Source: Escherichia coli (GTDB taxonomy: Bacteria > Pseudomonadota > Gammaproteobacteria > Enterobacterales > Enterobacteriaceae). From it: DNA of 64,000 nt. The position numbers and the translations under genes are program-made. Shown here piece after piece: positions 1,198 through 3,828 of the stretch; the first letter of the stretch is position 1, and the number at the start of each line of letters is the position of its first letter. The stretch lies in assembly GCF_003334785.1 (NCBI RefSeq), contig NZ_QOWV01000007.1; one strand, given 5' to 3'. The notes under the pieces were generated by a model, which searched no databases, had not been told where the DNA came from, and saw only the letters and a list, made by a program, of their open reading frames with translations.

Positions 1198-1213
1198 AGA
1201 CGTCTGGATGCCT
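1198..1213. promoter_or_regulatory. Putative MetJ operator (tandem met boxes) upstream of metN
   Basis: AGACGTCT (perfect 8-bp met box) followed by GGATGCCT, about 90 bp upstream of the metN start. Confidence 0.45.
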
Positions 1214-1295
1214 TAACATCCATTTCATTGACGGCGTTGCCCGTTTCAGGCATTCGAGATGCCACGACTAACTTAATGACGATAATAAATAATCA

Positions 1296-3012: not shown

Positions 3013-3828
3013 ATGGCGTTCAAATTCAAAACCTTTGCGGCAGTGGGAGCCCTGATCGGATCACTGGCACTGGTAGGCTGCGGTCAGGATGAAAAAGATC
3101 CAAACCACATTAAAGTCGGCGTGATTGTTGGTGCCGAACAGCAGGTTGCAGAAGTCGCGCAGAAAGTTGCGAAAGACAAATATGGCCTGGACGTTGAGCT
3201 GGTAACCTTCAACGACTATGTTCTGCCAAACGAAGCATTGAGCAAAGGCGATATCGACGCCAACGCCTTCCAGCATAAACCGTACCTTGATCAGCAACTG
3301 AAAGATCGTGGCTACAAACTGGTCGCAGTAGGCAACACTTTTGTTTATCCGATTGCTGGTTACTCCAAGAAAATCAAATCACTGGATGAACTGCAGGATG
3401 GTTCGCAGGTTGCCGTGCCAAACGACCCAACTAACCTTGGTCGTTCACTGCTGCTGCTGCAAAAAGTGGGCTTGATCAAACTGAAAGATGGCGTTGGCCT
3501 GCTGCCGACCGTTCTTGATGTTGTTGAGAACCCCAAAAATCTGAAAATTGTTGAACTGGAAGCACCGCAACTGCCGCGTTCTCTGGACGACGCGCAAATC
3601 GCTCTGGCAGTTATCAATACCACCTATGCCAGCCAGATTGGCCTGACTCCGGCGAAAGACGGTATCTTTGTTGAAGATAAAGAGTCCCCGTACGTAAACC
3701 TGATCGTGACGCGTGAAGATAACAAAGACGCCGAGAACGTGAAGAAATTCGTCCAGGCTTATCAGTCTGACGAAGTTTACGAAGCAGCAAACAAAGTGTT
3801 TAACGGCGGAGCTGTTAAAGGCTGGTAA
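3013..3828 (+). CDS. metQ: Methionine-binding lipoprotein (ABC substrate-binding)
   Basis: 271-aa ORF with signal peptide and lipobox LVGC; NlpA-type binding protein. Confidence 0.95.
   Translation: MAFKFKTFAAVGALIGSLALVGCGQDEKDPNHIKVGVIVGAEQQVAEVAQKVAKDKYGLDVELVTFNDYVLPNEALSKGDIDANAFQHKPYLDQQLKDRGYKLVAVGNTFVYPIAGYSKKIKSLDELQDGSQVAVPNDPTNLGRSLLLLQKVGLIKLKDGVGLLPTVLDVVENPKNLKIVELEAPQLPRSLDDAQIALAVINTTYASQIGLTPAKDGIFVEDKESPYVNLIVTREDNKDAENVKKFVQAYQSDEVYEAANKVFNGGAVKGW

Follow-up and report, generated by a model that had tools for sequence, protein, structure and literature searches.

Positions 1198–1221 of the analysed DNA are almost certainly the MetJ operator, already known and published, that serves the metNIQ (metD) operon of E. 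coli. MetJ is a ribbon-helix-helix repressor with S-adenosylmethionine as its corepressor; one dimer occupies each 8-bp met box, and neighbouring dimers contact each other cooperatively. When S-adenosylmethionine is plentiful, E. coli halts both the import and the synthesis of methionine, and the control of the importer by MetJ is textbook knowledge. The identification of metD as metNIQ is said to have been made in papers of 2002 (Merlin et al., Gal et al.).

The boxes were scored with the information-weight matrix and the site rule of Augustus & Spicer 2011 (PMC3228920, Table 3), whose single-box threshold of 3.145 bits is called arbitrary by its own authors. A preliminary description of this DNA had recognized a perfect met box followed by a degenerate second box at 1198–1213, and the sequence between gmhB and metN indeed reads AGACGTCT GGATGCCT. 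These are boxes 1 and 2; the extent given there fell short of a third in-register box, TAACATCC, which carries the operator to 1221. The matrix scan and the comparison with other met-regulon operators that had been suggested as checks both bore out the assignment. The scan returned three in-register boxes that sum to 20.43 bits as the sole rule-passing site within the window (by which we mean the whole 64,000-nucleotide stretch that was analysed); the matrix was seeded with the metNIQ site and refined partly on orthologues, so this score is not fully independent. The comparison led to the entry for b0199 metN of strain MG1655, which is listed as agacgtctggatgccttaacatcc with three boxes, 20.45 bits and a gap of 74 to the start codon (PMC3228920, Table S1). 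Sequence and box count are the same in the window, and so is the gap of 74 between position 1221 and the ATG at 1296.

Functional evidence comes from the same study. A 400-bp Ec.metN operator-lacZ fusion gave a repression ratio of 0.05 for wild type versus delta-metJ, which amounts to 20-fold MetJ-dependent repression, and metNIQ was among the "known metboxes" that seeded the matrix (PMC3228920). The article describes gel shifts with 50 nM MetJ and 250 µM AdoMet for the tested repressed operators, and direct binding of MetJ to the metN fragment is taken from its text. An independent comparative study also placed metNIQ in the core MetJ regulon. The preliminary description had spoken of a methionine-dependent repression of metNIQ. 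The repression stands, given the published operator and the reporter ratio, but the corepressor is S-adenosylmethionine (PMC6005444) and methionine acts only indirectly. The main value of the present analysis is that the scan is shown to recognize true regulatory sites, and there is little beyond this. It does sharpen the geometry: once the published transcription start is combined with the published boxes, the array is seen to fill the promoter spacer, and the third box coincides with the −10 hexamer.

The first 4 kb of the window contain the 5′ end of a minus-strand 16S rRNA gene, followed by gmhB, metN, metI and metQ (Table 1). On this E. coli chromosome, gmhB and metN are 187 bp apart, and the operator lies in the space between them. 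Relative to MG1655, the window is reverse-complemented (window position = 223,941 − MG1655 coordinate); 2500 of 2501 bases are the same in the two, and the sole mismatch is outside the operator. MG1655 encodes metJ (b3938), which itself lies outside the 64-kb window. A 401-bp intergenic query found a match in all but one of the 5426 complete E. coli genomes, with gmhB and metN as the annotated neighbors. The queries 1000–1400 and 1186–1232 also gave three gmhB-metN matches on plasmid-labelled records, and a few E. coli genomes with two copies of the gmhB-metN region. In nearly all Enterobacterales draft assemblies (loci L002–L021) the contig ends about 0.8–1.4 kb upstream of metN. This is consistent with an rRNA operon beside gmhB, as in the window, breaking the assembly, an indication that this rrn-gmhB-metN arrangement has been conserved widely.

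Table 1. Coordinates in the window of the metNIQ operator, the metN promoter and the surrounding genes.
Feature	Positions	Strand	Relative to metN start	Score (bits)	Basis or remark
gmhB	533–1108	minus			
metN −35 hexamer (putative), TTGATT	1191–1196	plus	−36 to −31		from published start; TTGA invariant in 22-species alignment
Complete MetJ operator, three contiguous 8-bp met boxes	1198–1221		−29 to −6	20.43	
Met box 1, AGACGTCT	1198–1205		−29 to −22	12.58	perfect consensus
Met box 2, GGATGCCT	1206–1213		−21 to −14	4.22	
Met box 3, TAACATCC	1214–1221		−13 to −6	3.63	includes −10 hexamer
metN −10 hexamer (putative), TAACAT	1214–1219	plus	−13 to −8		from published start, conserved; 17 nt past −35
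metN transcription start, A	1227	plus			NC_000913 222714 (minus); coordinate mapping verified
metN 5′ untranslated leader, 69 nt	1227–1295	plus			published start
metN, methionine ABC importer ATPase subunit, first gene of the regulated operon	1296–2327	plus			ORF and RefSeq annotation
metI, permease subunit	2320–2973	plus			ORF and RefSeq annotation
metQ, methionine-binding lipoprotein	3013–3828	plus			ORF; name by metNIQ gene order in PMC3228920

Promoter geometry and conservation of the operator

The metN start is taken from Kim et al. 2012 (supplementary file 2, PMC3415461), one high-throughput data set, in which it is supported by 83 reads and gives a 5′ UTR of 69 nt. The upstream sequence in that entry ends in ...TTGATTTAGACGTCTGGATGCCTTAACATCCATTTCA, and the K. 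pneumoniae metN start is at the same base, with the same motif (PMC3415461). The Cappable-seq and ROSE supplements had no entry for the metN start, and a literature search for the metN promoter gave unrelated matches only. From the published start we infer TTGATT and TAACAT as the −35 and −10 hexamers; in more distant Enterobacterales the former reads TTGACT. With these assignments, the operator overlaps the metN core promoter, filling the 17-nt spacer and covering the −10 element.

The mechanism may be pictured as follows. With S-adenosylmethionine abundant, MetJ dimers would bind cooperatively, presumably one per box. Bound at −29 to −6 of the sigma-70 promoter, they would deny RNA polymerase access to the −10 element and the spacer, an occlusion that would lower transcription of the methionine importer about 20-fold. 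Since the boxes span −29 to −6, over both spacer and −10, the geometry points to promoter occlusion, and repression most likely proceeds by the exclusion of RNA polymerase, the blocked step being read from this geometry.

A consensus scan of the plus strand reported a single promoter match, ATGCCA-16-GATAAT (1259–1286). It was rejected as the main promoter because it would place the start about 3 nt before the ATG, as opposed to the mapped 1227; it may serve as a minor second promoter. Kim et al. 2012 (PMC3415461) also list a weak 5′ end (14 reads) at window position 2312 (NC_000913 221629, minus), within the 3′ end of metN and 8 nt before metI. It could reflect an internal promoter or a processing site.

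For conservation, 80 metN loci were collected, one genome per species, anchored on the MetN protein rather than on a DNA motif, and the 300 nt upstream of each were scanned. All 21 fetched Enterobacterales loci carried a site, 55–103 nt before the ATG, with three boxes in 20 of them. The upstream alignment of 22 Enterobacterales sequences revealed one sharp block, TTGAyTTAGmCGTCTrGAyrcCyTAACATCC, which corresponds to 1191–1221, and the flanks on both sides had diverged. Box 1 was AGACGTCT or AGCCGTCT in all 22 sequences. Box 2 read GGATGCCT, AGATGCCT, AGACGCCT, AGACACCT or similar, and its forms in more distant Enterobacterales (AGACGCCT, AGACACCT, AGATGCCT) scored 5.6–7.8 bits. Box 3 was TAACATCC in 21 of the 22, with TACCATCC as the single exception, an invariance that cannot be separated from its function as −10 hexamer. 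Box 3 begins with TA, off the met-box consensus at positions 1 and 2, and is nevertheless invariant because this TA is the conserved start of the −10 element. Within the species, the 47-nt promoter-operator (query 1186–1232) was shared without change by 5258 of the 5426 complete E. coli genomes; in the one variant that was inspected, the −35 hexamer and the boxes were intact and all change lay elsewhere.

Farther afield, most Vibrionaceae metN loci had three to four boxes with 26–35 bits, and those of Orbaceae, Psychromonas, Aeromonas and Haemophilus had two. No qualifying tandem site was found within the 300 nt upstream of metN in Rodentibacter and Salinivibrio, although both belong to MetJ-bearing orders; each had one strong box only. 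The Bacteroidota, Halomonadaceae, Negativicutes and other outside-group loci sampled had no qualifying site, and the best single box among them was at most 8 bits.

The coincidence of operator and promoter raises the alternative that the conserved block is the metN core promoter alone, in which case its likeness to met boxes would be incidental and the control by MetJ indirect. The block does start exactly at the −35 hexamer and end just past the −10, and box 3, the most invariant of the boxes, is the −10 hexamer. Promoter spacers, however, are normally without sequence constraint, yet 1198–1213 is conserved and varies among met-box-compatible bases only (AGmCGTCT rGAyrcCy), which argues for a repressor site rather than a promoter alone. 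Vibrionaceae, Orbaceae, Psychromonas and Aeromonas differ in promoter context and still keep two to four tandem boxes, whereas the taxa sampled outside the MetJ-bearing orders (these orders as given in PMC3228920) are without boxes. The gel shifts that the same article reports for tested repressed operators speak against indirect control as well. We consider a promoter without an operator very improbable, and retain the reading of a MetJ operator laid over the metN promoter.

The protein comparison behind the locus collection yielded a separate observation. The MetN proteins of nine Bacteroidota loci (Pedobacter, Flavobacterium and others) are 61–72% identical to E. coli MetN, compared to 64–68% for Vibrio and 54–58% for Halomonadaceae, so that Bacteroidota are as close as Vibrio or closer. 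These identities suggest that the transporter may have been horizontally transferred between Bacteroidota and Gammaproteobacteria. The upstream scan found no met boxes at these Bacteroidota metN loci.

Box scores and the expectation from chance

The performance of the scanner was controlled on the metJ-metBL-metF locus of MG1655 (4,127,500–4,134,000), from which it returned no sites other than the two known operators: metJ/metB with four boxes and 31.18 bits and metF with four boxes and 24.92 bits, each at its published score. At metN, boxes 2 and 3 are weak and barely exceed the single-box threshold. The in-register 8-mers that flank the array score −9.93 and −19.42 bits with the published matrix, and with values this strongly negative the ends of the array are sharp. 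Box 1 does not stand isolated, since it has two in-register partners, and box 2 is nearer the consensus in other Enterobacterales (AGACGCCT, 7.84 bits).

One alternative explanation is chance, by which AGACGTCT would be a short palindrome with an AatII site, functionless and only happening to precede metN. About one perfect 8-mer is indeed to be expected in 64 kb: the window has one against 0.65 expected, and at least one occurred in 45 of 100 shuffles. Likewise, qualifying tandem sites of low score arose at 0.66 per shuffled window. Thus, the lone perfect box is not significant. The tandem array is. Only 0.93% of the 8-mers in the window exceed the single-box threshold, and only 4 of 1000 dinucleotide-preserving shuffles of the window (0.4%) reached at least 20.43 bits; the probability of two more in-register boxes, given one strong box, is approximately 2.6e-4; and among the 12 highest-scoring single boxes of the window, the one at 1198 was alone in having passing neighbors. 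The site is, furthermore, kept at all Enterobacterales loci between flanks that diverge, and MetJ-dependent repression has been measured (PMC3228920). Because the conservation and the reporter data agree with the tandem score, we regard chance as excluded for practical purposes.

Equally implausible is the proposal that the inverted repeat TGGATG-N6-CATCCA (1205–1222) is an RNA hairpin, a terminator or the site of another dimeric regulator: a terminator scan flags its 6-bp stem, followed by TTTCATT, but the repeat is upstream of the published start at 1227 and hence outside the metN mRNA, its T-tract is poor, an Rfam scan of 1050–1400 at E ≤ 1 gave no match, and the terminator-like hairpin was rejected as simply the dyad to be expected of boxes 2 and 3, which are adjacent and palindromic.

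The metN leader and the gmhB side

Downstream of the start, a hairpin can be drawn in the leader at +4 to +19 (window 1230–1245, ACGGCGTTGCCCGT). Its position recurs in many Enterobacterales (loci L002–L020) and the stem sequences differ: GACGG/CCGTT in E. coli, TTACGG/CCGTAA in Enterobacter, GCTTTGG/CCAAAGC in Yersinia, CTTTGG/CCAAAG in Hafnia and GTTGATA/TATCAAC in Acerihabitans. The folding energies of the first 26 nt of the leader, added up for 22 species, came to −108.8 kcal/mol, which 0 of 300 shuffles reached (shuffled sequences, −67.9 ± 8.9); the E. coli leader by itself folded no more stably than its shuffles (z = 0.29). The Yersinia and Hafnia leaders have a T-rich run after the hairpin. 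Farther along, about 30–35 nt before the metN ATG, is the motif (T)GCCACGG (window 1259–1270, ATGCCACGACTA). It is kept from Escherichia to Yersinia, Erwinia and Hafnia (loci L002–L019) while the surrounding leader diverges, and in E. coli K-12 it reads GCCACGA. The region 1278–1298 is without a recognizable Shine-Dalgarno sequence for metN, and a conserved A/T-rich stretch, GACGATAATAAATAATCA, precedes the ATG. A literature search for a link of GcvB or another small RNA to metN or metQ gave nothing relevant. The hairpin, the GCCACGG motif and the absent Shine-Dalgarno sequence raise the possibility that the leader holds a second, undescribed layer of control on top of MetJ, such as a site bound by a small RNA or a protein, or an element that affects the stability of the mRNA. 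We consider it unlikely, although conceivable.

On the other side of the gap, a second conserved intergenic block is found at 1141–1152 (TAGTATCGCATG), the minus strand of which reads TGcGATACT. Its sequence makes it a candidate for the extended −10 element of gmhB. Transcription of gmhB would then begin near 1135, with the met boxes at about −63 to −86 from that start and outside the gmhB core promoter, so that MetJ would not be expected to affect gmhB. The tables of Kim et al. 2012 contain no entry for a gmhB start (PMC3415461).

Comparison with known MetJ operators

Set beside the metNIQ operator of E. coli K-12 (b0199), the site in the window shows no difference, with the 24-mer, the three boxes and the 74 nt before the ATG all identical. 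The operators of E. coli metJ/metB and metF consist, as does that of metN, of contiguous 8-bp boxes and are recovered by the same scanner. They differ in having four boxes, with 31.2 and 24.9 bits, whereas metN has three, with 20.4 bits.

At E. coli metE/metR, the MetJ operator is combined with MetR activation. This operator resembles that of metN in its three tandem boxes (21.08 bits) and in the ACATCC tail of its last box, the full sequence being agccgtcc agatgttt acacatcc (PMC3228920). It is listed for both of the divergent genes, metR and metE, whereas the metN operator is listed for metN only (PMC3228920). The metN operator is also unlike it in possessing a perfect consensus box and in lacking a nearby MetR-like TGAA-N5-TTCA element, of which none was found in the gmhB-metN intergenic region with up to one mismatch allowed.

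The Vibrionaceae metNIQ operators share with that of E. coli the orthologous operon, the tandem boxes upstream of it and the consensus AGACGTCT box. In contrast to the E. coli operator, they reach the higher box numbers and scores given above, through the series ATACGTTT AGACGTCT AGACGTAA AAATATCT, and are located 74–171 nt from the ATG.
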